This document shows positions 1 through 64,000 of a DNA stretch of 64,000 bases, in pieces. The notes beneath the pieces are model-generated. The model did no database searches. It worked only from the letters and a program-made list of their open reading frames with translations, and was not told where the DNA came from. Numbering within the stretch: position 1 is the first letter of the stretch; the number at the start of each line of letters is the position of its first letter. The position numbers and the translations under genes were made by a program. Source of the DNA: an uncultured bacterium (GTDB taxonomy: Bacteria > Patescibacteriota > Gracilibacteria > Absconditabacterales > Absconditicoccaceae); assembly GCA_963552955.1 (NCBI GenBank), contig CAUVLQ010000007.1:1200-65199 (forward strand). The letters run 5' to 3'.

Positions 1-49
1 AAAATCATATTTTGAATTCGATACTTTTATATTCTCATGTATAATTATT

Positions 50-1714
50 ATGTCAGAAATGAAATTTAATGCGAATTTACCTTTGTGTGAACAAGAAAAA
101 CAAAATAATATTGTGAATAAAATTTCTGAAAATTCAGAGAGCACAGGAAGTGAGGTTTTTTTGATTTTATGATTTCTTGGAGCTGGGAAAACGACTTTGC
201 TCAAGGATTTGGCTGGATATTTGGCAAATCAGTGAGAGCAATTTAAAGTCATTGTAAATGATATTGGGAAATACAATATTGATGCTGAGAGATTGAAGGA
301 TTTTTCTCCGGTTGCTTTAACAGACTGATGTATTTGTTGTCAGGATTTAAGCTGATTGAAAAGTGCTTTGGAGGATTTGAAAGGTAGTAATGAAAAAATT
401 CTTATCGAACCTTCTGGAATCGCTGATGGGAAAGCTATCAAGAGAGTTATTGAGGAGTTAGGAATGCAGGGAAGAGTGATTACCCTAGTGAATGCTCAGT
501 CTTTCCCAACTATGTCGAAAGCTGAAGAACAGATTGCTTCTACACAGCTTTCTTTGGCGAATGTTATTGCGCTTACGCATCTTCCTACTGATAAAGAAAA
601 GAATCAAGAGTTAAGATCTCAGTTATCTCAGAAATATCCTCATCAGCCGGTTATTGAAGCGCCTTATACAACTAATAGTGAGGATTTTATGAAAGATGAT
701 AGTTCGTATGAAACTATTGTAAATCTTATGAGAAAACATTCTCAGCATAGTCATGCTGAGTGCGATCACGATCATGACCATGACCATCATGACCATCATC
801 ACGAGCATGACCACGAACATGACCACGAGCACAATCATCACGATGAACATGAACATAATCATCACCATCATCATGAACATTCAAAATTTTTTACAAAGAG
901 TATTGCTTTGTCGGAAGAGACTTCACTCGACCAGTTGAAGGGGCTTATTGCTCAGCTCGGTGAAGATGCGCTTCGTGTAAAGTGAGTTATTAAATACTGA
1001 CTTCAGGCTTTTGAATTTGATTATGTGAGAGGAGGTGAGTTAGAAATCTGAAATATGACGACACTTCAGCCTCATCTTAATGTTATTACTCAACGTTCTT
1101 TATCTCCAGAATTGATAGCTATGATTTCTTCGGGTTCAACTTCTTCTGAAAAACTTTCTTATGTTCCAGAAAAGAAAATTTACTCTCCAATAGAGGTTTC
1201 TGCAGCGGTTTCTGTTCTTTTGAACCAATATAAGGACTATATGAATATGTATAATGAAAAACTAGCTTTAGAGACTGAATATGCTAAAAATCAGGATTCT
1301 AAATTGGCTCAAGAGATTCAGCAGCTTGATATTGCTCTGGACAAGCTTTGAGATGATATGAAGTTTGATAATCCATTGATTTGGATTGGCTATAAGAGGC
1401 TTGCATATGCAAATAATTCTGAAAAAAAGGTAGAAACTATTTGAGAACTCAAAAAGCATTGTGAGAGAAAAACGGATATTTGCCACAAAAGATTAGATTT
1501 TTTGAATGAGCATCTCAAGTCAGACTTTTGAATTGATCTTTTTGATGAAAATCAGGTAAAAGCTGAGCAGTCTTTGGTTGATTTTATTAAGGAAAATGAG
1601 GCAATTAAAAAACTGAGTCAAGATGAGCAATTTATGACTCAGTGGCTTCAAAATGAGTATTTTCAGATTGATGGGAAAGTTGCAAAATGGCAGAACTATC
1701 AGTCTGTGCACTAA
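50..1714 (+). CDS. CobW/COG0523-type G3E P-loop GTPase (metallochaperone-like) with His-rich insert and long C-terminal extension
   Basis: With TGA=Gly, the unlisted N-terminal stretch 50-355 plus track ORFs 356-985 and 1055-1351 continue in one frame to TAA 1712-1714. Motifs: FLILGFLGAGKTTL (first G of GFLG is TGA 170-172), TDGCICCQ (G is TGA), IEPSGIADG. H/D/E-rich run about 755-880. Confidence 0.8.
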
Positions 1715-2463
1715 TAAGCTTCTACAAAGATATTTTTATATCCTCTTGCTCTTAAGTTTGTGAGGAATTCCTTGACCATAAGTGGTACTCAGCAGATATA
1801 AAATTCTGTTTCTGCTGGGAAATCAATATGATCGATGTTGATTCTTCCATATTCAAATCCCTCAACCTCTTCTCTAGAAATACTAATATGTGTTTCAGGA
1901 ATGTTGAGGTTTTTGATTTCTTCTACATAAAAAAGATCTTTTGCATAGGAAACTGAAAAGAAAAATCGTTTTTGGGATCAGCTTTTATCTTCTTTTGCCA
2001 TACGATAGCAAGGTGCTAATCCGCTTCCTGTTGAGAGGAATACTTTCGGATTTGTGGTATCTTTGAGGAGAAAGTGTCCTTTTCCTTCTTCGATTTGGAG
2101 TTCTGAGGCTTCTGGGAGCTGTTTTAGAATTTCTGATCCTTTCCCATTTTCAACGAGCTTGATCAAAAAAGTTAAAATGCTCACTTCTCCCTCAGTTTCT
2201 AGATTTGCCACAGAGTAGGCTCTTTTAATTGTTCCCTCATTGGTAGGGTAGTGGATAAATACTCGTGCTCAAGGTTGAAGTTCCATCTTGGAAGTTTGTA
2301 TTTTTAGTTCTATGATATGATCGTTTAGCATTTTTTTGCTGAGAATTTTTCCGTTTAGCATTTTTTTATTTGTATGAAATAAACGAGGATAATTGTAATT
2401 TTTTTTTGATTTTTTGCAAATGTTTGAGTGATAGATTATTTTGTAGTTTTTTATATTTGACAT
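1711..2463 (-). CDS. ferredoxin-NADP reductase-like FAD/NAD(P)-binding oxidoreductase
   Basis: ORFs 2269-2463 and 1978-2211 are in frame and join through TGA. Motifs: LQPG-ARVFIHYP, RAYSVA (RxYS FAD motif), FLSTGSGLAP (NAD-binding), YICGVPLMV (G is TGA). TAG stop 1711-1713 overlaps the convergent CobW stop. Confidence 0.7.
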
Positions 2464-2521
2464 TTCTTCATAAATGTGTATAATATATTTTATGCGGATT
2501 TATATTTTAATTATTAGAATA

Positions 2522-3499
2522 ATGAATATTAATCATTCTAGGGAATCTAAGAATACAATATCAGAGGTGCAGAATATTCCATTTAGCTCAATCGCTCTTT
2601 GACCTTCGGGGGAGAGAAACAGCCCTCAGGTTACAATTGATGAGCTTAAACAGGTCTACCTTGATTCAGTTGAAGCAAATATTCGTGTGATGGGGGTGAG
2701 AAATCCTGACTCTATACGTGTAAGTTTGTATCATGCTCAGAGTATTGAGAATATTTTTAGGATTGGAAGACAATACATTAGTCAGCCTGTTCATAAGGCT
2801 GAGTGAAGTTGTGGTATTAAACTTTCTAATTCTGGTAATTTTAAGTTTGATCCGGTTATTTCTTTTGATCCCCAAGCGTTCACAGATAAGCAAAGCCTTC
2901 TTGATGTTGTTTATCATGAAGCTTCTCATTTGGTGTTTCAGTGTGATTATCTTCTTAATAAAATTGATCAAGATTCATCTGGTCTTCCAGCGATCGAGAT
3001 CATTAATAATGCAATTAATCAGTATAATGGAGATGTTAATGCTAGATTTAAAACTGAGTTTTTTGCTCGTGTTGTTTCTGCTGATTATGTTCATAAGGAG
3101 GGGGAGAACTGAAGAAGAGTTTGGGAGGCAACGGGAACCTCACCTATTCAATGACAATCTACTGAATATAATGATTCAATCCTTTATGCTAAAGAGTTTA
3201 CTCATATGAAGATTCAGCTTTATAATCTTTTAGCTAGACAGTATGGAATGGATCCTAATAGGGAAAGAAATAGTCAATTGATTCCTGCTGCAGATCAGCT
3301 CTTTCAATCGTATCTTAGAGATCTTTTGCATATTTTTATGAGGGATGATTGTACCATGGAAAGGATCAAGGATCTTATAAATCATGCTTCTAGTATCTTG
3401 TCCCGTGTTGTGCAGAATCCTCACTGAACCTATGAGAAGTTTTATGCTGATTTTTCAGCTACTATAGGGTATTGAAATAGCTGAACTTTTAGCAGATAA
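2522..3499 (+). CDS. hypothetical protein with HExxH motif (possible zinc metallopeptidase)
   Basis: ATG 2522. One frame through ORFs 2930-3112 and 3206-3427 with several TGA=Gly, ending TAA 3497-3499. VVYHEASHLVF contains HExxH. No other recognisable family signature. Confidence 0.5.
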
Positions 3500-3680: not shown

Positions 3681-5126
3681 GTGATGGAGTATGTGATTAC
3701 GGTTGGGCTGGAGATTCATTTGAAACTAGCGACAGCGACCAAGATTTTTTGTCCCTGTAAAAATGAGCAAAATCTGGATGATAATCATCCAAATACAACA
3801 GTATGTCCAGTATGTACTGCGCAGCCTGGTGCTTTGCCGCAGTTGAGTGAAGAAGTTGTAAAAAAGGGATTGCTTTTAGGGAAAGCGCTCAAATGTGTGG
3901 TTCAAAATCCTTCATCATTTGATAGAAAGTCGTACTTTTATCCAGATTTGCCGATGGGATATCAGATTACGCAGTTTTATCGTCCGATCAATGTTAACGG
4001 TCAGCTTTCTTTTTTTTCTGAGACCTTTGATGAGGAGAGAACCGTAACGATTACTGACGCTCATCTGGAATGTGATACTGCTAAAGTATTGCATTATAAT
4101 GGTAAAATGTTGCTAGATTTTAACCGTGCAGGGACGCCATTGATAGAAATCGTAACGGGGCCAGATTTTCAGAGCGCTGATGAGGCTGTTGCTTTTGCAA
4201 AGGAGATTCAGAGGATCGCAAAATATAATCAGATTTCTGATGCAGATATGGAGAAGTGACAGATGAGAGTTGATGTAAATGTTTCGATTAGACCTTCACT
4301 TGATGCTCCGTTTGGAACGAGAGTTGAGCTGAAAAATATTAATTCATTTTCTGCGATCAAAAGAGCGATTGAAACTGAGGTAAAAAGACAGCTTGCATGC
4401 CGAGAAACAAATGAGCCAATCAATCAGGAGACAAGAAGACGAGATGATCTGAAAGGAATGTCCTTTACGATGAGGAGCAAGGAAGATGCGCTTGATTATA
4501 GATATTTTCCAGAGCCTGATTTGCCAGAGCTTCAGTTAAAAAAAGAGCTCTTGGATGAGGTGAATGCTAGTGATATCTTGCTTCCTTATGAAAAAATTAA
4601 AGAAATGAAATCTGATTTCGGTTTTCATAAGGAGTTTATCAATGTTTTGATCAATGATAAGGAAGTATTAGATTTTTTCTATGACTTGGTGAAAATGGGC
4701 TTTTGACCGAAGCTTGTAGCGAAGCGGATTGCAGGTCCGATCAGTGCCTATATGACTGCGAATGCAGTTGCGATCTCTGAATTAAAAATTGATAGGGAGC
4801 AGTTAATCAGCTTTTTTAAGCTTGCAGAAGAAGGTAAATTGATAGAAAATCAGTTGAAGATTTTGATGGATGAGTTGCTCAATCAGTGAGGTGATTTGCA
4901 GGAAATTATCAAGGAGAAAGGATTTGATGCTCCTCCTGTTAGTGAAGATGAGATTATTGAAGTTGCGAAGGGGGTTTTAGATGTGAATCCTCAGATTGTT
5001 GAGCAGTATAAAGGTGGAAAAGTTACAGTGATTGGGTTTTTTGTTGGGCAGGTGATGAAACAAACGCAATGAAAGGCGAATCCAAAGCAGATTCAGGAGA
5101 TTATGACAAGATTGTTGTCGGCTTAG
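3681..5126 (+). CDS. gatB: aspartyl/glutamyl-tRNA(Asn/Gln) amidotransferase subunit B
   Basis: VITVGLEIHLKL, CPVCTAQPGALP, FDRKSYFYPDLP, DMEK-G-QMRVDVNVS (G is TGA 4257-4259). C-terminal GatB/YqeY domain VIGFFVGQVMK. Four in-frame TGA. TAG stop 5124-5126. Start is GTG 3681 or ATG 3684. Confidence 0.95.
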
Positions 5127-42714: not shown

Positions 42715-42715
42715 A

Positions 42716-46646: not shown

Positions 46647-46676
46647 TTTAAGACTGTTGACTTCTTAAAATAGAAG

Positions 46677-46707
46677 GTCGTACGAATTGTTTCGTGCGGC
46701 TTTTTTT
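46677..46707 (+). terminator. rho-independent terminator of the tRNA array
   Basis: 10 bp stem gtcgtacgaa / ttcgtgcggc followed by T7. Confidence 0.75.
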
Positions 46708-49107: not shown

Positions 49108-49126
49108 CCTTTAAGCACTAAAAATC

Positions 49127-50032: not shown

Positions 50033-50044
50033 TTTTACAAGAAA

Positions 50045-51370
50045 ATGAGCCAAAAAATTGAATATATTGCTGTAAAAAACTTCAAGTGAATAAAAGAACT
50101 TGAAGTCAGCAACCTTTCTCGCTTCGTAGCTGTTTTCGGAAAAAACGGAGCTGGGAAAACCAGCTTTATCGAAGCCATCAAGTCAGCAATCAAAGCTGAT
50201 AAGTGAGTCAATTCTAAGGTTAGAATTGGAGAGGCGAAAGGCGAGATTGAGGTTAAATTTGAAGATTTCGTGATTAAGAGGATTGTTTGAGAGAATGGGA
50301 AACTTATTGTAGAGCATAATGGAGAACTCGTAGCTAAACCTCAAGCTTGGTTAGACTGAGTTTTTAAGGGGACGATTGGTGATCCGCAGAAGTTTATCAA
50401 CCTCCACAACAAGGAGAAAATCAAATATCTCCTTGAGACGCAAGGTAAAAAGCTCGAGTATGATGCTTTAGAAAAGCAAAGAGAAGTAAAATTTGAGGAG
50501 AGAACTAATCTTCATAGAACCTACCTCGCAAAAAAAGAAGAGGTAGATAAAACTGATACTTCTGCTTTTGAAGTCCTCGAGAATGCTATGGTTGATCCTA
50601 CCGCTCTCCAGAATCAACTTAAAGAAGCCGAGACCCACAACTCAGGTTGGCATGAACTCAAGGCAAGAGTAGAGAAGTGAGAAACGGTAATTGATCAGAC
50701 CAATTCGGAGATTAAGGCGATGATTGATGGTATTGAGAGCATAGATCGTCAGATCGAAATGCTCCAAAAAAAGAAAGCAGAAGCAGAAAAAAATCTGACT
50801 ACAAAGCAAGAGTTCCTTGATAACGCTTCTTGTCAATTGGCTGATTTGAGAGACAAATACGAGAATTTTGACAAGATTGATACAACCGAAATTCTTGCTC
50901 AGCTTGAAGCTCACAATCAATCGCTTGCAAAAAATGCAGAGATTAAAGCCAAAAAAGAGCTTTATACTCAGCAAGTGCAGGCGAGGAATGATTTACAGGC
51001 TCAGTGGAAAGAGCTTGATAATATGGTCAAGGAGATCGAACAAAAACAGAATGATCTCATCAAAGACCTTAATTTGAGCTATCAGCTCAAGTTGGAAGAG
51101 GGGATCATGTATGTATTTGTCCATGATAGCCGAATCCCACTTGATGAACTCAATACTGCTCAGCAGTTAGAAATCGGCGTTGATATTTGCCTCTCTTGAC
51201 CTAATGAGATCAAAATCATCACAATAGAGAATGCTAATGCTCTTGACCCCAATACTCTTGAGAGAGTAAGGGAAAAGATAGAATCCAACCAAGCACAATG
51301 CTTCTTAGAGACGGTATATAGCACAGGGTATGATGAGATAACTATTGAGGATTGAGAACTCAAGAACTAA
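50045..51370 (+). CDS. SMC/SbcC/RecF-like AAA ATPase with central coiled coil
   Basis: N-terminus IEYIAVKNFK-G-IKELEV...VAVFGKNGAGKTSFIEAI (Walker A). Long coiled coil. C-terminal ITIENANALD (Walker B-like). Confidence 0.7.
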
Positions 51371-51501
51371 TTCAGAATTTTATTCTTATTCAAAAGAATG
51401 ACCCACTGAATGATTATAACCTTAGTATTCTTGGTTATTTACATATATCTCATTCGGAAAATTCTCGATGAGAAGTAAAATTTTATTTATTATGTATTGA
51501 A

Positions 51502-52623
51502 ATGAAACTAAGCATAAAAAGAAAGGAGCTCCTCACTATGTTAGAGTTCGCAAAAAGATTTATTGAAAAACAATGAACATTGCCAGTCCTCAAGAATGTC
51601 TGTCTTAGAGCTAGTGAAGAGTGACTGAGATTGAGGACATCAGATATGGAGAAAGATTTTTCTGCTATTCTCAGAGAGGCAAAAGTCTCTGAAGAATGAG
51701 CGATTACGGTCAATGTAAACCAGCTCTACAACCTTCTCAAGAAAGACAAGAGTTATATGCTCCAACTAAGCAATAACGATGATGGTCTCGTAGTCCAATG
51801 AGACGAGCTCAAAAGCGTCCTCTATGGTATCCCTGCTGGAGAATATATCGCAGAGATTGATAGACCTGACTGTACGATCTCTTGTAGCACTTCACTACTC
51901 TTGGAGGCTATAGAGAAAGTGAGCTATGTGATCACGGAGAAAAGTTTCTCGCCTGTTCTTACAGGAATGTTGATCAAGCAAATAGATAACCTTGTGCATT
52001 TCGTTGGAACAGATAGTTTTAGGCTCGTGAGATATACCGCAAAAGCTGATCTTGGAGAGATTGAGGCAATTGTTCCAGTAGATGCACTCAAAGCCATAGC
52101 TCCTATTCTAAAATATGCGATCAGCATTGGAGCTACAAAAATAATGCTTTGAATAGATTATCAGAAGCTTTCAATCAGTATCTCAGGGGGAGATCAGGAG
52201 ATTGTAGTCACTACATTGCTGATTCAAGGGAATTATCCTAACTATGATAGAGAGGAGATTATTCCTACTAGTTATAGTGGATATATGACTGTTGATAGAC
52301 AAGAATTTTTGCAGAAATTACCTCAGATTATGGCTCTTACAACACCTTATCTCAACTATCCAGTAAAGCTTGAGGTAACGGATAATCAGCTTACACTATC
52401 AAGTGGAAAGACAGACAATGGAGAGCTGAATGCTACCTTATCTTGTCATTGTTTTGGACGGGTTGGGAACTTTTCAGTCAATGGTAGATACCTACTAGAC
52501 TTTATAAAAAATGACTCTTCTCCTCAGATTAAAATTGAGATAGTAGGAGGCGAAAAGCCGATCAGAATAACAGGTATGAATGACAATAATGTAGAGTATA
52601 TTGTCAGACCGCTTGTAAACTAA
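51502..52623 (+). CDS. DNA polymerase III beta sliding clamp-like protein (phage-encoded)
   Basis: 373 aa. LPVLKNVCLRA, SFSPVLTGMLI, FVGTDSFRL, LIQGNYPNY, FSVNGRYLLDF follow the DnaN domain pattern. Three frame-consistent ORF pieces. Confidence 0.8.
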
Positions 52624-52729
52624 TCTTGATCTATCAGGGCAACTCACCTAGCAGTTATGAAGTTCTGCTGGGTAAGATGCCCTTGATGGGCGGTATTAAA
52701 CTTTATTTTTATTTCTTATTTGTATTGAG

Positions 52730-52930
52730 ATGGAAACTTTTGAGACAAAAGAGATTCATGAGGATGATATTCCATACACTAGTGGTTGGGGATATGACTT
52801 ATTTGAATGAGGGTATTTAAAACCTGAGAATATTCTAAAGAACCAAGAGGATATTGATGAAGTCAATAATGCGATAAAGGTTCTTGAAAAATACAAGGCT
52901 ATATGGGATAAAAACAATTGGTATTTATAA
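52730..52930 (+). CDS. small hypothetical phage protein (66 aa)
   Basis: ATG 52730. One TGA. Acidic. Ends at TAA 52928-52930, just before the hairpin tctcccc/ggggaga. Confidence 0.35.
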
Positions 52931-52958
52931 TCAGCTTTCTCCCCTGATGGGGAGATAT

Positions 52959-53066
52959 GCAGAGGTGGCGGAATAGGTAGACGCTTTTGGGTAACGCATA
53001 ACTACAAGGGGAGATAGTGCCTGAGGAATCAGCCCCTATGCGAGGTGCAAATCCTCGCCCTCTGCT
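52959..53066 (+). ncRNA. aberrant 108-nt tRNA-like gene (Leu-type D-arm, oversized central region)
   Basis: Perfect acceptor GCAGAGG/CCTCTGC. D-arm GCGGAATAGGTAGACGC (Leu-like). T-arm (G)CGAGG-TGCAAAT-CCTCG(C). 56 nt in between do not fold into a normal anticodon arm plus variable arm. Confidence 0.5.
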
Positions 53067-53129
53067 CAATTTTGATTTCTACTTTTGTAGATTTGTATTA
53101 TTTTTACCTAGTCCTTTTAGACTAGGTGT

Positions 53130-53187
53130 GCAACAGTAGCTCATTGGTAGGGCGCTAGAGGTGTTGGTTCGATTCCAACCTGTTGCA
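53130..53187 (+). ncRNA. 58-nt tRNA-like gene lacking an anticodon arm
   Basis: Acceptor GCAACAG/CTGTTGC. D-arm GCTC-ATTGGTA-GGGC. T-arm GTTGG-TTCGATT-CCAAC. Only 9 nt (GCTAGAGGT) lie where the anticodon arm and variable loop should be. Confidence 0.5.
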
Positions 53188-53340
53188 ATTGATGATCGAC
53201 ACTAGTGTTATGTGGCGTGCACACTACATAATACTAAGGTTGTTCATTTTCGGAGGGGACGCCCTCCTGTATACAGAGGACGGCTAAGCCAAGAGAGCGA
53301 GTAAGCTCTCCCTCTGGAGATTTTAGATGAAAGTATCAGA

Positions 53341-53832
53341 ATGAAAAAAATACTAGACGTCTGCTGTGGTGGCCGCACCTTTCGGCGAGATAAGAATAAT
53401 CCACTAGCTGAGTATATGGACATAAGAAGAGAAGAAGCCTGATTTATCACTGCGAGACCTAACTTTGTTGTGGATCCAGACTTTGTGGCCGACTTCCGTG
53501 CTATCCCAAGACCCGACAATTCTTATAAGCTCGTAGTATTTGACCCTCCGCATTTAATTCATGCAGGAGAAAAATCTTGGCTGAAAGGTAAGTATGGTAA
53601 GCTTACCAAGGAGAGCTGGCCAGCCGATCTTAAGCAGTGATTCAGAGAGTGTATGAGAGTATTAGAGCCGTATGGAACTCTCGTATTCAAGTGGAACGAG
53701 AATCAAGTTAAGCTCCATGAAGTCCTCAGGGCTATAGACTATACTCCACTCTTCGGAACGAGGAGCGGTAGGAATGGAACGACAATACGACTAGTTTTTA
53801 TGAAGATACCAAAAGAAGAATGCAACCAATAA
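53341..53832 (+). CDS. small SAM-dependent DNA methyltransferase (DPPH motif)
   Basis: ILDVCCGG (motif I), LVVFDPPH (motif IV, DPPY-type). One TGA. Segment TF-CGG-CGA-DKNNP. GC-richer than its surroundings. Confidence 0.7.
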
Positions 53833-54839
53833 CAGTTCTCTCCCTCTTCGATGGGATGAGTTGTGGTAGATTAGCTCTAGAGAGAGCTGGAATACCTGTT
53901 GAGAATTATTGGGCTTGTGAGATTGATAAATATGCAGCCCAAGTAAGTCGTAATAATCGAGATGATGTGTTCCACCTATGAGACGTGAGCGATCTCAGCT
54001 GATGGGACTTCTCAGAGGATGTCTGTTGAGAACCAATTGATCTTCTCATCGGAGGAAGTCCTTGCCAGTGATTCAGCAATGCAGGTAAAGGGCTGAATTT
54101 TGAGGATTCTCGCTCAAAACTCTTCTTTGAGTTTGTTCGCATTCTTAATGAGGCGAAGCCGAGATGTTTCCTATTGGAGAATGTAAAAATGAAGAAGGAA
54201 TGGCAGAATATCATCTCAGAGAATCTATTCTGAATACAGCCAGTGGAGATTGATTCTGCTCTCGTCTCAGCTCAAAGGAGAAAAAGACTCTATCGAGTAG
54301 GGAAAAGGAATGAAGACTGATCATATTCTCAGGTTGTAGTTAATCAGCCAGAAGATAAAGGGATTTTGCTTAAAGATATTCTAGAGGACAAAGTTGAGGA
54401 ATCGTACTATATCAACCAAGAAAAAGTCCAGAATACGGATACTAAGCAGTCAAACTTTCTTAAGAAAATTTTGTTCAATATAAACCCTAGTGGTAAAGGT
54501 ATGAATGGCAATGTTTATAATCCTGAGCATAAAAGCCCAACGCTTACTACGAACAAAGGAGAATGAATTAAAATAATTCAGCTTCCTAGAGGCAAGAATA
54601 TCTGAGGGATTATAGACAGAAAAACACCTACTTTGTCAGCGAATTTGTGGCAACATAACAATCTACTACAGGAATGATACAGAGTAAGGAGACTCACGCC
54701 GATAGAATGCGAGAGGTTGCAGACATTGCCTGATGATTATACCACAGGAGTCAGCAACTCTCAGCGTTATAAGATGCTAGGGAATGGATGGACGATTGAT
54801 ATAATTGCCCATATCTTTAGGGAGATGTTCCACGATTAG
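53820..54839 (+). CDS. dcm: DNA (cytosine-5)-methyltransferase
   Basis: LSLFDGMSCG (I), GGSPCQ-G-FS (IV), LLENV (VI), QRRKR (VIII), TPIECERLQTLPDDYT, GNGWTI (X). Overlaps the upstream gene by 13 nt. Confidence 0.9.
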
Positions 54840-54922
54840 CTTTTCGGTATTACCGAAAAGGTCAGAGATGTACGAGAATTTCGTACAGCTGAAATCAGAT
54901 TTATTTATTATTATTTTTACAA

Positions 54923-55192
54923 ATGACAAGAGAAGAGAAGTTAGAAGCCATATACGATGAAATTGATAGAACTATTGTATTTTTTAATCAGTTTTGAGGT
55001 ATAGAATTTGATTGAGAATGAGATGATTATACATTCCTCCCAATTGTGATTGGTGATATTATGGAATACTTCAAAAATTCACGATGATATGTTGACTGTA
55101 TTATTGGGCTTTGGAATGATTACGCAAATCCCCTATATCTACAATCAGATGAGTGTATAGACTATGTTTATTCACTGATACCGAAATCATAA
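54923..55192 (+). CDS. hypothetical phage protein
   Basis: 89 codons, four TGA, frame checked to TAA 55190-55192. Confidence 0.4.
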
Positions 55193-55225
55193 GTCAGATT
55201 TTTTATCTTTTTTTTACGAAAGCAG

Positions 55226-55501
55226 ATGAATATAGAAGTAAAAACTCTCCCAAATGGACTAAGATACATACCAATGACAATGGTTGAAGCAATGAAAATT
55301 TTTTGATGATTGTGAATTTGTGATAATTGTAATTCAGGGAATTTTGGAAAATGAAACGCTTATATACCAGTTCTTAATAAATGGTATTGTAAAAAATGCT
55401 TTGAAGGATGGAAAAAAAGAGCAAAATTTTATCCTGATGATGTCAAATTTGAGGAAAACAACATTCAGTATGTCATTTCTGTAACTCAAAATAAATCTTA
55501 G
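55226..55501 (+). CDS. hypothetical phage protein with CxxC...CxxC (zinc-ribbon-like)
   Basis: ICDNCNSGN...WYCKKCFEG. 91 codons to TAG 55499-55501. Confidence 0.4.
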
Positions 55502-55550
55502 AGTAAACAAAAACGATAAATCAGAATTTTATTTCTTTATTAACTATAAG

Positions 55551-55943
55551 ATGAATGAAAATTTATTACAAAAACTAACTGAGGTAGGAGATAAGATTGT
55601 CACAGCTATTCAAACAGGACTCGACCAAGCGCCAGCGTATATTCAAGACTTAGCTCATAGGCGAGTATCTTTACAGTTATGGAAGAAATCTGTATCCTTG
55701 TTTATTTTGTTTGTTATATTCTGTCTTATTATATGGCGAGCCGTATACCTAATCAAGGCAGGAAGAGAAGAAAAGTGTGACTACGGAGACCCATCTGGAT
55801 ATTATGTAGGGGCATTCTTTGTTTTATTGATTCCTGGTACTATTCTTCTTATTTGTATCTATAGTGACATCTCTACTATCCTTTGATATTCTATGGTCCC
55901 AGAACTATATATTCTGCAGGATATTAAGCAGTTCTTGCAGTAG
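55551..55943 (+). CDS. hypothetical phage membrane protein (two TM helices)
   Basis: ORF 55551-55886 extended through TGA to TAG 55941-55943. TM helices SVSLFILFVIFCLII and VGAFFVLLIPGTILLICIY. Confidence 0.45.
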
Positions 55944-55975
55944 ATGATTTATTTTATCCTTTATGTAATTTAACA

Positions 55976-56344
55976 ATGCAAGAACTAGAAACCTTACTTA
56001 ACTCTCTTATACAGAGAGGGTGGAAACCGTTTAACTACATTTGAACAACTGAGAAAATAGAGGTAGGCGATAATTTTGAGATTGCTATAGTCTTTATAAC
56101 TTGAGAATTCTCCTATCATACCCTCCGTGATTTGGTAGTTCTCGAGAGCTGATTCTGGCAGTTTATATGTAGGAACAAACTATATAAAAATAACAAAGAA
56201 AAATTTTGGCAGAACGTGTCTAAGGTATCAGTCAATATCTGATGGTTTCCTCGTAATTATGAATACCGACTCCTAGAATCAGCACTGATTCCTGAGGAGG
56301 AACTGGGACAGTTTTTAGTTGATAATATTAAAATACAATGATAG
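55976..56344 (+). CDS. hypothetical phage protein
   Basis: 122 codons, five TGA, frame checked to TAG 56342-56344. Confidence 0.4.
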
Positions 56345-56479
56345 CAAACCAAATACTATGAACATTTGTATGAGTTACATTATGCTTATTTATGTATTCA
56401 CTAGCAACAGAAGATAGGGCTTGAATATTTGCAACTACAATTGCCTTGGTTGTACTTATAATTACTTACATTATTGTCA

Positions 56480-56695
56480 ATGGCAATGGAGGAATTTAAG
56501 GTATGAGATAAGGTAAGATACACTCAAGACTACCTCGATCAGCGAGAGCTTGTAGTTGGGATACCCTATCCGTTTCAGGATACCTATACCATCAAGGAGC
56601 AGCTTACAGCAATCTCCTACTTGGCAGACTGAGAGAAGCCTGAGCATAGGGGGAGAATAGTCCATCCTCGAGGGATGGAGAAAATAGAAGAATAA
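56480..56695 (+). CDS. hypothetical phage protein
   Basis: 71 codons, two TGA, two CGA, frame checked to TAA 56693-56695. Confidence 0.35.
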
Positions 56696-56726
56696 TTCTG
56701 ACTTTTATTTACTTTCTATACTTAGA

Positions 56727-56954
56727 ATGAAATTAAGAATTGTCCAACTTCCCACTGGAGAATACGAAGTTCAGAAATTCTATGATAACAAAAAAGATTC
56801 TCCTTATTGGGCTCACTACTACCATAAAGAACCTTGATGACCTTTCCCGATGCCTGACCCAAATCAATCAAGATTTTTTACTCTAAAAGCAGCAGAAGCG
56901 TTTATTAAAATGCTTTTAGAAAAACTGAAGATTGTAAAGGAATTTGAAATTTAA
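56727..56954 (+). CDS. hypothetical phage protein
   Basis: 75 codons, MKLRIVQLPTGEYEVQKFYD..., two adjacent TGA (KEP-GG-PFP). Confidence 0.4.
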
Positions 56955-57080
56955 AAAATCTGATTTGTCGCCTTCAAGTATCTAAAAACTCTTAAGGGTT
57001 GACTTTCTAAAAGATAAGAGTATAAGAAAACCACTATATTGATTTTCCAGTGGTTTTTTATTTTTATTTTCAAAATACTC

Positions 57081-58112
57081 ATGAAAAGATTTCTAACACT
57101 CCTTCTTGTAGGGATTTTTAGCTTTGGGATGCTTAGCTTTGCTCAGACCCCAGTAGAGCAAAAGGCTGACGAGTTAAGAGCTGTTGTAAAACTCATACTT
57201 AATCAATCAAAAGATAAACAAAAAGATACTCAATTCGTAAAAGCTCTTTTTGCATGATGCGAACAAACTTGCTCTGATTCTACAATTAAAGAAGCGGCAA
57301 AACTTATAAATACTACCTTTGATAAGGATTTTTGACTTACAGCTACTGAGGCAAAAAATCAGACTTATAAACTTATTGAGGTTGTGGATTGAGACACTGT
57401 AAAAATCGAGAAAGATGGACAAGTAGTATCTGTTCGTATGATTGGGCTTGATGCTCCAGAAAGCACAACTATGAGATATGGTCATATGGAGTGTTTTGGT
57501 AAAGAAGCAGCAGCTCATCTTACTCAGCTCCTAAGTTGAGTTTCTCAGGTTGAACTAGAGGTTGATCCTACTCAGACAGCAACTGACAAGTACTGAAGGC
57601 TTCTTGGGTATGTAATAGCAAACGGAGTAAATCTGAATCAGAAGATGATTGAAGATGGATATGGATTTGAATACACCTACAATCTCCCTTATAAATATCA
57701 ATCTGAATTTAAATCTGCTCAAAAAATAGCTTCAGAAAAGAAATTTGGACTTTGGGCTGATGTAGCATGTAAAGGCGAAAGAAAAGCTATTGAAGAGGAA
57801 TCTAAAAAAGAGACTGAAAAACCATGAAGCTCTGAAGATAACATTTCAAAAGAGGAATATTTTTCATACAAAACATACTACACTTGACCAAAATGAGGTT
57901 GCTATTATTGGAATGGAAATGATAAAGTTTATGTAGATAGGAGTTACTGTTGAAGAAGCACAAGTACTACGACAAGTTCCTCATATAATTATTCATCTAG
58001 CTCCTCATACAGCTCTTACTCAGATTCTTCATCAGGGAGAATTTGCTATACTGGACCAAGAGGAGGACGCTATTACTATAATAGTAAAGGGAAAAAAGTT
58101 TATGGGTGCTAA
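57081..58112 (+). CDS. secreted thermonuclease (SNase-like) with C-terminal Ser-rich linker and two YTGP(K/R)GG repeats
   Basis: Signal peptide MKRFLTLLLVGIFSFGMLSFA. SNase motifs VVD-G-DTVKI, VRMIGLDAPES, DKY-G-RLLGYV, EDGYG. C-terminal YT-G-PK-G-GCYYWNGNDKVY and CYTGPRGGRYYYNSKGKKVYGC. Confidence 0.85.
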
Positions 58113-58123
58113 GTAAATTCAAT

Positions 58124-58163
58124 AAAAAAAGAAGTCGGATACCAGACTTCTTTTTCTTTTTTT
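58124..58163. terminator. bidirectional terminator between the + and - strand modules of the element
   Basis: A-run, then stem gaagtc/gacttc with an 8-nt loop, then a long T-run. Confidence 0.75.
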
Positions 58164-58171
58164 ATTCAACT

Positions 58172-60121
58172 TTATTCAATCAATGGAATCATATCGCATC
58201 TACAGTTTGGATGGAGAGGACTACCAATCACATTTTCATAATCTAGTCTTAATCTTCCTCAGTTATTACCACTCATAATAGATCATTGTTTGAAAAACTC
58301 CTCTTGCAGTCAGATTTTCTTTCAGTGCATCTTACCGCAATACTCACAAACCCTCTCATCTATTGCTGTTCGCCACTGTTTAGATTTAACAACTCAAGAC
58401 TGCTCTCGTGCTGATTGCTCAGCATAAGTCCCAAATCTGATTGCCTCCGTTCTGACGATGGTTTCTAACCTGCGACCTTGGAGTTCATCAAAGACTTTTA
58501 TGAGCTCTTGCTTGATCTCTTCAGGTTGCATATTTCCAGCAAGCCCCATCTCTACGACCTTTCCGATTTTCTCATCAGTTATTGTATCAACATTTTTTGC
58601 GATGAGCTGGATTTTTTGCTTCAGTTCTTTTTTGATTTTGTCTGTATTAAGATTGAACTCAATATCTACATTTAATTCGCTCATTGCTCTTACTCATTCC
58701 TCACTAATAAGCGTCTCCAATTCTGGTCTAAGATAAATATGATAGAGAGCATAGTATTTGAGTAAAAGTTGATAATCATATTTTTTGAATCCTTTTTTAT
58801 GCTCTTGCTCAAATTTTTTCAATATATCTTGCTTTTGCTTTTCAAAAATTTTCATAAATCAGACTTTTAGTCTTTTTTCGTATTCATCATTTTTTTTCTG
58901 TTTTTGTATCCATCTTTTCTGCATCCATTCTTCAGATCGCTTAATATTCTCCTTTACAATCGTCTGAAAATCTACCGATTTCATACTTATTCAGATGCTT
59001 TCTTTTTGTACTTCTTGTACTATTTCTGCATCTGTTCCGTCCACAAAGACATCTCCTCATTTGATAGGCTTATATCAAAGTTCTTGCCTGTACTCATTTC
59101 TTGTTATTCATCCTGCAAAATAATGATTCCTGATTTCCTCCTCGTCGGTTGGCAATACATTCACAAATTCAAAATTTCCGATCCCTTGGAATAACTGGTC
59201 ATTGAATACACGAGCAATCTTTTTCGCTAACGGCTCAATGCAACGAGATGCAAAAACCTGATTGAAAGCTTTTACGTTACCAACATTTACTCCTTCTCCG
59301 ATACCCAAAACTGCTTTTGGGACTTTATAAATTGCGAGAATTTTATCTCTATCTCGAGATTGCTGAGCAATAAATTCCATCTCCTTTGGTGAAGATTGGA
59401 GATTTGCTGGTTTGATACCAAATGGTAAAATTGCCAGCTTTCCAGCATTATCAGCTCAACTATGACGAGCTTCTCGGGAACTTCTAACTTTTTCTATTTG
59501 CTCCTTACTCATTGCCTGTTCTGTTGTGAGTATCATACCTGGAGGAGTGTCATGATTAAGGAGTGCGTAATTCCATTTTTCAATCTCTTTTTCCCCCCTG
59601 ATTGTCATTGCAATCGCTTGAATCGGACTATAACCTCTTGTGATATACGGATACCTTTGACTAGGATTAAACTCAGCAAAGACCATAACTTCTTCCGGTT
59701 GGAGGATGATTTTATTACTTCACTCTCGATAAATCCAATTTTTTAAGTATCAGTTACTATCTATTTGAGGGCTGATATTCCATGGCAAAAGCATACTCAA
59801 ACCAAGCACTTTTCTGTTATTCATCACCTTCCAAACATAAGCAGTTCCCGTCATCTTCATAAAGATTGCAATATTTTGCAAAAGCTCAGGAGTGATAAAG
59901 TCTGAATATTCGTGCTTAATCTCTTTATCTTGTTTGTCTGCAATTCTCCAATTTAAGCCTGAAAGACTATCGGAAATTGCTGTAATTGCTGCATATTGCC
60001 AACCGACGAAAAAATTTACATACTCATGATTCTTAATTGCTTTGTCTCAACCAAAACCTCAAAAAAGGGTTAAAAAACCTGTTTCAGATTTCTTAAAAAT
60101 ATTTTTTAGTCGAGCAAACAT
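58172..60121 (-). CDS. phage portal protein (HK97 family) fused to a Mu-F/SPP1-gp7-like head morphogenesis domain
   Basis: I translated 58685-59110 codon by codon with no TAA/TAG. ORFs 59456-59686, 59108-59380 and 58394-58684 are one 649 aa frame from ATG 60121. Portal-like IAQQSRDRDKILAIYKVPKAVLG. C-terminal RRLETIVRTEAIRF ... ERVCEYCG ... PLHPNCRCD. Confidence 0.75.
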
Positions 60122-60125
60122 TTTT

Positions 60126-60536
60126 TTACATTGAAAGAATAAAATCAGTATGGATTGCCAGTAAAACAATTGCATGGAGTGTTGGTCCACTTTCAGTCTC
60201 TACACTCTGAATATCTCAACCGACCGCATCAATTTTTAATGCCAATCAGTCTAAATCTGAACGATCAAATCTTTCTATTACTTCATCCAAAATGTCACAA
60301 AGATTCAACTCTGATTCCCTATTTCCAAGAGTTGTTGTCTCTTGAAAAATATTGATCTGGAAAAAATATTGTCTCTGATGATGGTTGCTATCCAGATTCT
60401 GGCTTTCCACTCTATCAAAATTAAAAAAGATTGACGGAAACCCTCCGAATTTTTTTGGTATCCCATCAAAAATTCCTGCAACTCATTCAATCTTTTGTAA
60501 TTCTAAAAGAATTTTTGCTCTCAATTCGTTTATCAT
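60126..60536 (-). CDS. phage head-tail joining / neck protein (DUF3168-like)
   Basis: 136 codons. Start overlaps the upstream stop (ATGATAA). The position after the gp10-like gene and its size fit neck/tail-terminator proteins. Weak motif support. Confidence 0.4.
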
Positions 60537-60979
60537 GAGAATCTATTATTGGCTAAAGTATCAATAATTTCTGAAAACCTCTTTTGGATCCTACTTTGAG
60601 AATTTTCCAGAGCCCTAGTAAAAAATGGATTTGCCTTAGTTCAAGGATGTCTGACTGATTTGACAGGGTGGTTTGCACCGTTCCAAAAAAGTCCTTTTTT
60701 CTCCTTTGGTTTAATGAGATGAGTCTTTGTTCCCTCATGGACATAGAGAGCATAAGCGATATTATTATAAATCATAGCATAGTCTGTATAGACTTTACTT
60801 CTGATATATTTTCTCAGTATTCATTTATCTACAGGGGCCTCCTTTTTTGCCTCTCACTCAATGAATATTGCAGATTCTTTAAGCCACTTTTCTCTTGCAT
60901 TTTTTAAATCAAGTTCTCCAAAAGTCTGAAGTTTTTTTGCTACTTCTTCAGCTCAAACAATTTTTAGTGTTATATTCAT
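60530..60979 (-). CDS. HK97 gp10-family head-tail connector protein
   Basis: EAPVDK-G-ILRKYI ... YALYVHEGT ... ANPFFTRAL matches the gp10 family pattern (ap.dtG.Lr.si ... Ya..vE.Gt ... a.pFl). Confidence 0.65.
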
Positions 60980-61269
60980 TTCTCCAAAATTACTGTTGTT
61001 AAAGCCAAGTTTCAGCCTCTCCTCTGTGCGACTCCTTGCACAGAATATTCTTGTCCATCAATTACGATAGTATCGGATTCTCTAACATCTACCCAAGCAG
61101 TAATGCTCAGCTTATACATTTTCCCAAATTTCCCAGCTTCCATCAAGCGGGAGTTCTCACTTACTGCGGTCAGGTAGGCAGGATGTGTAGCAATGGTTTG
61201 TTTCTCTCTCGCTATCTTCCCCTCATAGACAAGCCTTTTTACCTCAGCGTTGCAATTAAATAACATCAA
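60970..61269 (-). CDS. phage head-tail adaptor (head closure) protein
   Basis: ORF 61012-61269 extended through TGA to TAA 60970-60972. Size and position between the gp6-like and gp10-like genes. SDTIVIDGQEYSVQGV motif. Confidence 0.5.
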
Positions 61270-61576
61270 TAACTCTATATCTATCTAAAAGCACTTTTAC
61301 TGCATTTGGCACTTCTTCATTACTGAATGTGATTGAATAATCACTTAATCTTTCCGAACTAATACCGAGTTTTTGTGTCGCTTTAATCTTTACGAGATCA
61401 ATTACTGCAAAAAAGATATCTTGAGGAATTTTATCAGCTTTATCTAAGGAATAGTCTTGGAAAGTGTAGGAATTAACAAATGCAAAAGCTGACTGAACTA
61501 AAAGTTCAATCGTTGCTTTGTCTCGTCCACCTCCCAAGACCGTAATACAATTTTGTATCAACTGCTCCTTATTCAT
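61256..61576 (-). CDS. phage gp6-like head-tail connector protein
   Basis: About 106 aa helical protein directly downstream of the capsid block. Start ATG 61576 overlaps the upstream TAA. Confidence 0.45.
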   Translation of the reverse strand: MNKEQLIQNCITVLGGGRDKATIELLVQSAFAFVNSYTFQDYSLDKADKIPQDIFFAVIDLVKIKATQKLGISSERLSDYSITFSNEEVPNAVKVLLDRYRVIDVI

Positions 61577-61778
61577 CCTTAGTTTCTGCATCTTCAGAAG
61601 TTAAAGCCTTATTCTTTGCTTTTTTAACAGTCTTAGTTTCTGCATCTTCAGAAGTTTCCTCTTCTTCAATGAGTTTAACATATTCCTCTCCATAGCTTTC
61701 AGCGACTTCTTGTTCAAGTTCTACAACTTCTCCAGCCACTTTACCATCAATTCTACCTTTAATTACTTCGTATTTCAT
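61569..61778 (-). CDS. small acidic phage protein with internal 24-bp repeat
   Basis: MKYEVIKGRIDGKVAGEVVELEQE... The C-terminal TSEDAETK duplication corresponds to the direct DNA repeat cttagtttctgcatcttcagaagt (two copies, about 61578-61601 and 61633-61656). Confidence 0.45.
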   Translation of the reverse strand: MKYEVIKGRIDGKVAGEVVELEQEVAESYGEEYVKLIEEEETSEDAETKTVKKAKNKALTSEDAETKDE

Positions 61779-61848
61779 GATATTTCTTATATTAAGAATA
61801 AAAAAGAAGGGAGAAATCAGAATTTTATACCTCATTCTCCCAAAAAGA

Positions 61849-62997
61849 CTAAGCGTGAGTCTTGATTACAGCGAACGCTTCATCAGCAAGAGAAATTCCG
61901 CATACTCTAGCAGATCCCTTGATTGATTGAATATCTTTCTCCCACTCTCCAGACTTATATCCAACTTCAAAGCTGAGTCCCTTTCTGATTCCAAGAGCAA
62001 AATGCTTCAATGCTCCAAATGCGATGAATGGAGTATTAACTGCGATTGATCCACTAGGCATCACATCTGTCAGCTTTACAGGATATCCGAGCAAGAATCC
62101 TCTTTCTCCGTTATCAAGTGTTCTATAAAGAGGTCTACCATCACTATCTTTAAGCTTCTCAATAATAGCAATTGCATCTTGGCTAAGGTACCAAGCAGGC
62201 TTTGCATTCTCCTTATACTTAAGAGGAACTTTTCTCACTGCATCAATCAAGTTGTCTGCTGTTAATGTTGCAGCATTACCAGTAGTCGTGATCACATTTA
62301 CATTTTGGAGATTACAAATTCCTTTGATTTTAGAATTTCCACTAGCTGTTCCAGTCAATACTTCTTTATCCAAGAAAGCAGCAAAAGCTTCAGCAAATTC
62401 TTCTTGAGCCTTATTCCAAATCTCATCTGCTTCTGCACTATCAGCAATGAGTTCATAGGTTGCTGAGAGAATTGCACCGATCTTTTTAGCTGTCAATTCT
62501 TTTCTCTCGTAGTCCATTTTAGTATCTTGGTATGCACCAGCTTCATCTACATAGAATACTTTGAGTCCTGTTTTTCTGAGAATAAAGTATTTTGTGTTAG
62601 AGTTCATTTTAGAGATATTACAATCTTTCCAGATTCCGTAGTTTTCCATAAATCTCAATACTCCTTTTTCAAACTCAGGATGAACAAGATATCCACCATC
62701 TCCATCAGTGCCAGTATTCATTGCCTTCATTACTGAATCATCTCCACTTCTGAGAGCAACTAATGCACCAATAAAGTCTTTTTTGGTCTGCTCAAGATTT
62801 TCTTCAGCATTACCAAATTTTGACTTTTCTACCAAGGTTTTAATCTGTTCCTTGATTTCTTTGATGTCAGTATTTTCTGACAAGTTTAATTCTTTGAGTT
62901 TTGCATCTACTGCCGCTTCTACTGCAGCAGGAACTGAATCCTCTAAAGATTTTGCCAACACTTCAGCGATTTGTTTCATTTGTGCTTCGTTCAACAT
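61849..62997 (-). CDS. HK97-family major capsid protein
   Basis: 382 aa uninterrupted ORF. N-terminal helical delta-like region, DGDGGYLVHPEF, and the typical length and position after the protease. Contains no TGA codon at all. Confidence 0.85.
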   Translation of the reverse strand: MLNEAQMKQIAEVLAKSLEDSVPAAVEAAVDAKLKELNLSENTDIKEIKEQIKTLVEKSKFGNAEENLEQTKKDFIGALVALRSGDDSVMKAMNTGTDGDGGYLVHPEFEKGVLRFMENYGIWKDCNISKMNSNTKYFILRKTGLKVFYVDEAGAYQDTKMDYERKELTAKKIGAILSATYELIADSAEADEIWNKAQEEFAEAFAAFLDKEVLTGTASGNSKIKGICNLQNVNVITTTGNAATLTADNLIDAVRKVPLKYKENAKPAWYLSQDAIAIIEKLKDSDGRPLYRTLDNGERGFLLGYPVKLTDVMPSGSIAVNTPFIAFGALKHFALGIRKGLSFEVGYKSGEWEKDIQSIKGSARVCGISLADEAFAVIKTHA

Positions 62998-63032
62998 GTT
63001 TTTTTACAAAATAAGAATAAAAATCAGATTTT

Positions 63033-63764
63033 TTAGCCTCTTACGGCTTTTTTGAACATTGAAATCCCCTCGTTAGCGGCTTTTGCAATGTTCTGTAGGG
63101 TTTCTTTTGCGATGTAATTTGCCTCGTCTGCCCCTTTGCTCTTTCCATCGAGCAAAGCTTTCAGAAGATTCTTTACCTCAGCTACTTCCCCCAATATCTC
63201 AGCTTTAAAAGCTTCTAATTCAGGTATTTCTTCCTGTAAGATTCCAGCCTCGATCCCCTTTTTCATAAGCTGTTTTTGATCAAGACTAAGAGCATTCGGA
63301 TTGCATGGAACTGCCACAAATGAGAGCTCCAAGAGTTCTGCACTTGTGATAATTCTGCGATTGTCCTCTTGTCTCTGCTTAGGTATAAAACCTACAGAAA
63401 CCGTTTTTACCATCCCTTCATCATAGAGATCAGCCAACAATACTCCGAGTGGATTGCTCTTACTGAATACTCATTCAATAATCAATTTTCCATCTTCTAC
63501 TCAAATTTTTGTAGCTTTACCTACGATATTTTCTATTTGATAATCGTGATTTGCGATTATGACAGGATTTTTCATATAATTTTCCCAGTCCCATCCAGCA
63601 ACTTTGATTACTTCTCAGCTTCTATCAGTATCCTCAGTCGAAGCGACAACTCTGAATTTTCTATCAGAATTTTCCTCTTTTATTTCAAGAGAAGCAATCT
63701 GATCCTTGATTGATTTTGCCTGTTCCTCACTAATAGAGAGGAACTTTGCTTGCAATTCATTCAT
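63033..63764 (-). CDS. HK97-family prohead protease (S78/U35) with C-terminal helical (scaffold-like) tail
   Basis: VVASTEDTDRS-G-EVI, NPVIIANHD, VSVGFIP. ATG 63764 is in frame with ORF 63033-63440 through TGA. Confidence 0.8.
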
Positions 63765-63787
63765 TTTTTGATAGCCAGAATATAAAA

Positions 63788-64000
63788 TTAGTAGTTCTTT
63801 TGAGTATTTTTAAGTAAGATTTCAATTGCCTTTCTGGTCTTTACATCGTAATGACCTTTGAATTTGACTGATTGCTTGGTAAAGTCATCTACCGTATATG
63901 CAGGTGTCCAGTCTGTAATCTGAATCTTACTCAAATCGAGTTGGAAAGTATTGTTGTGACTCGCATTGATAGGATGCTTTGTGTCTTCAGCCAGCATTCT
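63788..64000 (-). CDS. hypothetical phage protein, possibly 5'-truncated by the window edge
   Basis: ORF 63788-63997. The frame stays open to position 64000. Confidence 0.35.
   Translation of the reverse strand, partial: RMLAEDTKHPINASHNNTFQLDLSKIQITDWTPAYTVDDFTKQSVKFKGHYDVKTRKAIEILLKNTQKNY

Follow-up and report, generated by a model that had tools for sequence, protein, structure and literature searches.

UGA read as glycine, and CGA and CGG behaving as tryptophan codons, in chromosomal and phage DNA of a human oral SR1 bacterium

The stretch described here, 64,000 nucleotides of contig CAUVLQ010000007.1 (the whole of which we call the window; G+C content 36%), comes from the chromosome of a human oral SR1 (Absconditabacteria) bacterium and includes an integrated phage. 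Our subject is the genetic code in which host and phage genes are written, and we are highly confident in one overall reading, namely that UGA encodes glycine, CGA and CGG encode tryptophan, and UAA and UAG are the sole stops. The lysyl-tRNA synthetase (LysRS) of the window is 97-98% identical to that of oral candidate division SR1 metagenome-assembled genomes, and shows 81% identity to that of the SR1 human oral taxon HOT-345 and 73% to that of the complete SR1 genome RAAC1. Furthermore, window proteins encoded without TGA have exact copies in human oral metagenomes.

Pfam annotation was carried out with X placed at every TGA. The host genes encode a CobW/COG0523-like GTPase, an FNR-like reductase, GatB, type IV pilin-like proteins, an SLH-domain esterase, YceD, RNase Y, a restriction-modification methylase, a NodB deacetylase, a YqeY-like protein, LysRS, a spore-photoproduct-lyase-like radical SAM protein, dUTPase, methionine aminopeptidase, exonuclease III (ExoIII), thymidylate kinase (Tmk), an ABC-F protein and S20. 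The prophage carries genes for a PD-(D/E)XK nuclease, an AAA ATPase, DnaN, a C5-methylase, an SNase, a portal-MuF fusion, head-tail proteins, an HK97 gp10-like protein, the capsid and a prohead protease. The larger features are as follows.

1-64000: the whole window, with 68 TAA/TAG-delimited frames covering 91% of it
33813-33895 (+): tRNA-Leu(GAG), the tenth tRNA, called by ARAGORN and unlisted by Rfam at the gathering threshold
45391-46646 (+): cluster of nine tRNAs (Gln, Met, Gln, Leu, Asn, Thr, Asp, Glu, Val) with rpsT embedded
46650-64000: prophage-like element, identified by Pfam annotation and running off the right end of the window

With all three stop codons honoured, only two stop-to-stop frames of at least 300 residues exist in the six phases. 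Reading through TGA alone yields 25 such frames, 10 of them longer than 500 residues, while reading through TAG alone or TAA alone still leaves two each. Gene fragmentation is therefore specific to TGA. The trinucleotide TGA occurs 1,866 times in the window, TAA 1,181 times and TAG 880 times. The 68 frames, a greedy, non-overlapping set, end in TAA (44) or TAG (24) and contain 350 in-frame TGA codons (332 if counted from assumed start codons), a density of 1.8% of codons; in-frame CGA and CGG number 76 and 25, or 101 together. Full-length conserved genes have no in-frame TAA or TAG and no frameshifts, and the frames span their homologues end to end (residues 3-478 of 480 for GatB, 1-260 of 263 for ExoIII). 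UAA and UAG are the sole stops in the window. The preliminary description had stated that TGA chops the genes under the standard code and that every genuine stop is TAA or TAG, and both statements are borne out by these counts.

The amino acid assigned to TGA was evaluated by a Codetta-like substitution test, in which every TGA in the concatenated conserved domains is swapped for one residue and the result is scored with Pfam. Over 35 TGA sites in six genes and seven primary families, glycine attains 690.4 bits, followed by alanine (627.5), serine (622.9), arginine (610.0), cysteine (604.3), tryptophan (586.6) and leucine (below 578). Glycine is the top-scoring residue in each of the seven families. 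A further test over 18 sites gives 249.7 bits for glycine and 202.6-227.3 bits for the other 13 amino acids. Taken together, the two tests place glycine best of all twenty amino acids at TGA.

The sites were also compared residue by residue with solved structures. These come overwhelmingly from organisms using the standard code, and the alignment test is therefore not circular. Glycine is found at 25 of 43 aligned TGA sites and tryptophan at none. By gene, the proportion of glycine is 8 of 12 in the ABC-F protein (against E. coli YheS), 5 of 6 in ExoIII, 3 of 4 in GatB, 3 of 6 in Tmk, 2 of 2 in dUTPase, 2 of 4 in the CobW-like GTPase (against YjiA), 1 of 2 in both the FNR-like reductase and RNase Y, 0 of 3 in NodB and 0 of 2 in the C5-methylase. 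Individual TGA codons at conserved motifs are listed below.

170-172 (+): P-loop glycine of the CobW/COG0523-like GTPase, GFLGAGKT; Gly in E. coli YjiA
326-328 (+): first residue of GCICC in the same protein; Gly in the structure alignment
1789-1791 (-): FNR-like reductase, YIC-G-VP; Gly in an MMO reductase structure
4257-4259 (+): GatB, DMEK-G-QMRVDVNVS; Gly in the A. aeolicus and T. maritima GatB structures
15699-15701 (+): RNase Y HD domain; Gly in an HDOD structure, a weak match
15723-15725 (+): RNase Y, second TGA; Ser in an HDOD structure, a weak match
31748-31750 (+): NodB-type polysaccharide deacetylase, EI-G-SHS; Gln in the best structure
40748-40750 (+): dUTPase, G-LIDSDYRGE; Gly in a dUTPase structure
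42512-42514 (+): ExoIII, RNV-G-WRLDY; Gly in Mth212
43259-43261 (-): P-loop glycine of Tmk; Gly in P. falciparum TMPK
44492-44494 (-): ABC-F signature, LS-G-GE; Gly in E. coli YheS

These motifs had been named beforehand as invariant glycines. The five positions for which coordinates were given are indeed in-frame TGA, four on the forward strand (170-172, 4257-4259, 15699-15701 and 15723-15725) and one, 44492-44494, that reads TCA on the forward and TGA on the reverse strand. The structures agree with the assignment for both CobW motifs, GatB, the ABC-F signature, Tmk, ExoIII, dUTPase and the FNR-like reductase. For RNase Y, the first site holds up and the second, which faces serine, is the weaker claim; almost no solved relatives of this protein exist, so the comparison of its two sites is a weak one. 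The NodB claim is weaker too, with glutamine in the best structure, and is favored by the Pfam score, glycine being the best of six residues tried (Polysacc_deac_1, 96.9 bits).

At the DNA level, codons were followed in a set of 80 loci around lysS from relatives, with subject codons mapped onto window codons. In relatives at 70-90% protein identity, window TGA sites are occupied by TGA 129 times, by GGN 91 times and by another codon twice, and window GGA sites are occupied by TGA 185 times. Counted per site, GGN occurs in at least one relative at 24 TGA sites, and TGG at one. Alignments of database proteins are a partly circular guide, as TGA was rendered as W by gene callers using table 4 and as G by those using table 25, and a W in a protein column can mask a TGA. 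Amino acid composition agrees with the codon exchanges. Glycine content is 4.2% from GGN alone and reaches 6.0%, a normal level, once TGA is added, with TGA accounting for 0.297 (about 30%) of glycine codons across the window. Tryptophan content is 0.84% from TGG alone and would be 2.7% if TGA were counted with it. That UGA means glycine in all genes, those of the prophage among them, is fully supported, and the earlier claim to this effect is confirmed by the Pfam scores, the structures and 91 of 93 changes going to GGN.

The arginine codons CGA and CGG also depart from the standard code. Codetta has predicted that both changed from Arg to Trp in Absconditabacteria (Shulgina and Eddy 2021, PMC8629427). 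In the window, 14 CGA/CGG sites can be aligned with structures, and the residues opposite are Trp at four, Tyr or Phe at five, Val, Met or Leu at three, and Glu and Arg at one each. The following are representative.

4401-4403 (+): GatB codon 240, CGA; V or M in the two GatB structures
4440-4442 (+): GatB codon 253, CGA, in ETR-R-[CGA]-D; W (T. maritima) or F (A. aeolicus)
4725-4727 (+): GatB codon 348, CGG; W in the T. maritima and A. aeolicus structures
41861-41863 (+): ExoIII codon 6, CGA, in MKIIS-[CGA]-NVNG; the conserved Trp of SWNVNG in Mth212
42794-42796 (-): Tmk codon 171, CGA; Trp in P. falciparum TMPK
42989-42991 (-): Tmk codon 106, CGA; Tyr in P. falciparum TMPK
Tmk codon 27 (-): Tyr in P. 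falciparum TMPK

The remaining sites include codons 296 (Tyr) and 598 (Leu) of the ABC-F protein and codons 47 (Phe) and 159 (Met) of the C5-methylase. With tryptophan at codon 6, ExoIII scores 98.1 bits for Exo_endo_phos, up from 90.4. Summed over 12 CGA/CGG sites, the Pfam scores are 876.1 bits for Trp, 866.6 for Tyr, 864.1 for Phe, 859.8 for Leu, 850.5 for Lys and 850.2 for Arg, so that each of the five other candidates falls below Trp.

The codon exchanges follow the same pattern. In relatives, the three GatB sites (codons 240, 253 and 348) are TGG or TAT. CGA or CGG stands opposite window TGG in each of the approximately 60 SR1-clade loci, and opposite a window arginine codon at a single site in each of three near-identical loci only; AGA of the window never exchanges with CGA within this clade. 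Gracilibacteria-labelled and more distant loci have CGA/CGG opposite window arginine codons, 2-14 times per locus, and never opposite TGG. A survey of all codons over approximately 3,600 aligned sites identifies three deviants, namely TGA, which faces Gly at 19 of 30 sites, CGA, which faces Y and W, and CGG; CCC is tied on 9 sites only, and the remaining codons are standard. Per 10,000 codons, CGA is used 40.8 times, CGG 13.4 times and TGG 87.5 times. CGA and CGG supply about 35% of tryptophan codons, and tryptophan content is 0.84% without and 1.29% with them. By these alignments and exchanges, CGA and CGG behave as tryptophan codons in the window.

A likely decoder is found in relatives at 81% LysRS identity. 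Two of them (L021, 3276-3348; L023, 2815-2887) encode a tRNA(UCG) with G73 and with U20 replacing the arginine determinant A20, provided that a 7-bp acceptor stem is assumed; ARAGORN draws 8 bp and calls a tRNA-Arg. The combination of G73 and no A20 fits the rule for tryptophan acceptors given by the Codetta authors (PMC8629427), and a tRNA of this type likely decodes CGA and CGG as Trp.

The phage obeys both rules, UGA as Gly and CGA/CGG as Trp. The TGA share of glycine codons is 0.297 in host genes and 0.297 in phage genes, in keeping with the preliminary statement that the prophage-like element follows the rule of its host, and the CGA/CGG share of tryptophan codons is 0.353 and 0.365, respectively. 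Phage contigs with an identical capsid show 39 changes at TGA sites of the window, and 30 of these lead to GGN. The genes examined individually are the portal and the capsid.

58172-60175 (-): portal-MuF gene, with 16 TGA and 7 CGA
59474-59476, 59354-59356, 58406-58408 and 58370-58372 (-): portal-MuF CGA codons 234, 274, 590 and 602
61849-62997 (-): major capsid gene; none of its 28 glycine codons is TGA, and it has no CGA or CGG

The portal was compared at the DNA level, since a W in a table 4 translation may stand for TGA as well. Among three portals that are 51-55% identical, CGA codons 234, 274, 590 and 602 are TGG in relatives, TGG codons 147, 417 and 601 are CGA or CGG in relatives, and TGA sites alternate with GGN. 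Database portal proteins have R and W nearly exclusively at the seven CGA columns. We note that the public relatives of the portal gene (P0001-P0086) carry W and G mixed at TGA columns, their callers having used table 4 or table 25, and R at CGA. Proteins of SR1 and of its phages are therefore systematically mistranslated in protein databases.

The capsid protein, which is present on more than 21 contigs, lacks TGA to an extent that differs from the window-wide fraction of 0.297 (binomial p = 5e-5). Two small genes beside it (61256-61865) are also without TGA, and TGA is scarce in RNase Y, LysRS, a lipoprotein gene and the gene at 19503-20711. The scarcity probably reflects a codon bias by which highly expressed genes avoid the recoded codons. 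Few or no TGA codons in highly expressed or conserved genes (capsid, RNase Y, LysRS) would also fit a decoder that is less efficient or less accurate.

The prophage starts directly after tRNA-Val, the last gene of the nine-tRNA cluster, and a tRNA gene may therefore be its attachment site. No integrase is found within the window; the related phage contig L001 carries one at its far end.

Other explanations of the in-frame TGA codons have to account for the same observations. If UGA were still a stop, the codons would reflect a decaying genome, sequencing or assembly errors, selenocysteine, or programmed read-through, and nothing speaks for any of these beyond the presence of in-frame TGA itself. 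There are 350 such codons, yet the full-length conserved genes contain neither an in-frame TAA or TAG nor a frameshift; the same TGA sites are kept in independent assemblies from many samples; and TGA occurs at functionally essential glycines such as those of P-loops. A density of 1.8% of codons is, moreover, far above that of any selenoproteome. Dozens of independent assemblies keep the reading frames open across TGA, which refutes this explanation, and we attach a negligible probability to it. A UGA read as tryptophan by a tRNA-Trp(UCA), the table 4 arrangement of Mollicutes and endosymbionts, would recover the open reading frames equally well, and many database translations of relatives do show W at TGA columns, table 4 having been chosen by their callers. 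This assignment nevertheless falls 104 bits under glycine over the 35 sites and is worse in every family. Tryptophan is absent from the structure-aligned sites, TGA exchanges with GGN 91 times and with TGG once, tryptophan content would reach an implausible 2.7%, and the lineage is SR1, not Mollicutes. The alignments refute UGA as Trp, which is hardly credible for this DNA, and Cys, Ser, Arg, Ala, Leu and 13 others also score under Gly.

The preliminary description had assigned the window to translation table 25; UGA as Gly and the two stops stand, and the part of that table that keeps CGA and CGG as arginine does not, since these codons behave as Trp. Plain table 25 shares the fully supported UGA assignment, and it can point to the CGA at codon 166 of the FNR-like reductase (g01; 1966-1968, -), the one structure-aligned CGA site opposite Arg, which faces Lys in an outgroup, as well as to three other sites opposite Lys or Arg in relatives. 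Arginine is, however, the worst or nearly the worst of six residues at the 12 CGA/CGG sites, 25.9 bits under tryptophan. Twelve of the 14 structure-aligned sites are aromatic or hydrophobic, including invariant tryptophans in ExoIII, GatB and Tmk, and in the SR1 clade the two codons exchange with TGG and not with AGA or CGT. Retention of arginine would also leave tryptophan at only 0.84%, compared with 1.29%. We regard it as very unlikely. Ambiguous decoding, or an unfinished reassignment in which UGA is mostly Gly and partly Trp through wobble by tRNA-Trp, and/or CGA and CGG are part Arg and part Trp, is somewhat easier to reconcile with the data and is still improbable. Error-prone codons would be expected to be missing from the capsid, which has neither TGA nor CGA/CGG, and scarce in other conserved genes; a few CGA/CGG do fall at basic positions; and U34 wobble between UGA and UGG has been noted as a potential (PMC8629427). 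Invariant catalytic Gly and Trp positions (P-loops, SWNVNG), on the other hand, would not tolerate frequent misincorporation, and ordinary codon bias also explains avoidance in highly expressed genes.

Several observations weigh against the reading that we prefer, in which UGA is glycine and CGA/CGG are tryptophan. About 40% of TGA sites face residues other than Gly in the compared structures; these are variable columns and hence provide no argument for another amino acid. The Pfam score of Tmk is marginally higher with Y than with W. Four CGA/CGG sites face basic residues, namely g01 codon 166 with the Arg and Lys already mentioned and three in relatives (g26:98 and g32:49 aligned to Lys, g35:61 to Arg). 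They are a minority that leaves complete reassignment unproven and some ambiguity possible, and they may be variable positions or leftovers from an arginine era. Sequence by itself, moreover, cannot show which amino acid is really inserted. The tRNA scans and a Pfam scan of open frames find no tRNA(UCA), tRNA(UCG), tRNA-Trp or release-factor gene in the window. The anticodons UCA, UCG and CCA are absent from all nine clustered tRNAs, UCA is not found among the 10 window tRNAs or in a tRNA-like gene described below, and Pfam detects no release-factor domain among the window proteins, which represent 64 kb of a genome of about 1 Mb. The decoding machinery of this genome is therefore unseen.

The mechanism can be modeled on published work. 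From the SR1 literature, GlyRS would charge a dedicated tRNA-Gly(UCA) that reads UGA, release factor 2 would be missing and thus offer no competition at UGA, and UAA and UAG would be terminated by release factor 1. The decoder of CGA and CGG would be a tRNA(UCG) in which the arginine identity element A20 is lost and the discriminator is G73, as for tryptophan. In the account given in PMC3812714, UGA as Gly was first shown in human oral SR1 by Campbell et al. 2013, and SR1 genomes decode UGA by a dedicated tRNA-Gly(UCA) and not by wobble. Table 25 was created for this lineage, whose code is also linked with Rinke et al. 2013 and Kantor et al. 2013. The tRNA-Gly(UCA) and an absent release factor 2 are the expected markers of the code (PMC8629427). 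LysRS places the window in oral SR1, the lineage in which the code was discovered, and the finding of UGA as Gly is therefore already known, since 2013, in its known lineage.

The window shares with table 25 (SR1/Gracilibacteria) the glycine UGA, the UAA and UAG stops, low G+C, an oral SR1 origin and genes fragmented by table 11. It differs in that the table keeps CGA and CGG as Arg, so that the other 61 codons are not all standard here. All three reassignments of the Codetta code for Absconditabacteria (UGA, CGA and CGG; PMC8629427) are present, with the same order of usage (CGA above CGG, both under TGG), and part of the Gracilibacteria clade keeps CGA/CGG as Arg, as do the relatives so labelled in our set. 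The published case is built on Pfam columns and tRNA features, whereas the window also provides CGA/CGG-TGG exchange at the DNA level and has a few sites aligned to basic residues. Absconditabacteria prophages written in code 25 have been described (Liu et al. 2023, mBio, PMC10746230). Like them, the window prophage is an integrated, TGA-dense phage with portal, capsid and protease that matches the code of its host; in addition, it is shown here to share the change of CGA/CGG to Trp, its capsid avoids both types of codon, and its relatives carry their own tRNA(UCA). Table 4 of Mycoplasma/Spiroplasma and insect endosymbionts likewise makes UGA a sense codon in a small AT-rich genome, but the amino acid in the window is Gly and not Trp, and the published mechanism is an extra tRNA-Gly(UCA), not an altered tRNA-Trp.

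The choice of table has practical consequences. Translated with table 11, the genes fall to pieces, and with table 4 approximately 330 glycines become Trp. Table 25 gets the open reading frames right, yet across the 64 kb it turns approximately 100 tryptophans into Arg, several of which have a catalytic or structural role as Trp. The change of CGA/CGG to Trp is the less familiar part of the code and has so far been a computational prediction only; the window adds independent DNA-level support for it, with an integrated phage that obeys it. If the prediction is true, the host-phage pair would offer a test bed for sense-codon reassignment.

A tRNA slot in the phage provides a small lead on the ways in which phages deal with a host of altered code or turn that code to their advantage.

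53130-53187 (+): 58-nt tRNA-like gene; 50.8 bits with the Rfam tRNA model, no ARAGORN call

The gene has perfect acceptor, D and T arms, and CUAG takes the place of the 17-nt anticodon stem-loop. A 98% identical copy is present in phage contig L004 (12769-12826). The junction has no match in viral contigs of IMG/VR, and a DnaN query retrieved only two IMG/VR relatives, both without a tRNA. At the syntenic site of phage contig L005 (13180-13273, -) lies a tRNA of 94 nt whose anticodon is UCA and whose variable arm is long. It is the only tRNA(UCA) among 90 loci (80 from relatives; approximately 1.3 Mb in all), and it is on a phage contig. A metagenome scan found the phage-type tRNA(UCA) on 14 further contigs (L100-L114; 15 hits), and in almost every case the flanking DNA is a homologue of window 53.3-54.9 kb. 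These contigs are up to 234 kb long and may therefore be prophages. The slot lies upstream of the C5-methylase and holds the tRNA(UCA) in most members and the 58-nt form in the window and one other contig.

The phage tRNA(UCA) is 93-95 nt long. Nine distinct versions of it fold as cloverleaves in which the variable arm has 6 bp, and three of the helices contain compensatory changes. The tRNA-Gly(UCA) expected under table 25 would have G1:C72, C2:G71, G3:C70 and U73. The phage tRNA has U73, G1:C72, C2:G71 and C35 in common with tRNA-Gly and is unlike it in C3:G70 and in its class II shape. ARAGORN labels it tRNA-SeC, yet the acceptor/T architecture is 7/5. Our guess for its amino acid is Gly, because the TGA sites of the phage are Gly sites. 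If the RNAs are functional, the phage would putatively supply or manipulate UGA decoding in a host where UGA is Gly, and the anticodon-less 58-nt RNA could act as a mimic or a decoy of tRNA, for which we have found no described counterpart. The joint proposal, in which CGA/CGG as Trp is complete enough to be shared by a temperate phage and such a fixed phage tRNA slot goes with it, is tentative and we consider it rather doubtful as a whole.

Two host regions deserve brief mention. The CobW/COG0523-like GTPase (50-1714, +) contains a 45-residue His/Asp/Glu-rich tract (HDHDHDHHDHHHEHDHEH...) and ends in a C-terminal extension of about 200 residues without a family match. Positions 20943-24127 (-) form a low-G+C island (27-31% G+C, with GC skew reversed) that encodes an N6-methylase with an N-terminal VRR-NUC-like region and a probable specificity subunit. 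The specificity gene is rich in TGA, which makes up 23 of its 29 glycine codons, and the island looks like a restriction-modification module acquired from another organism in which UGA is Gly.

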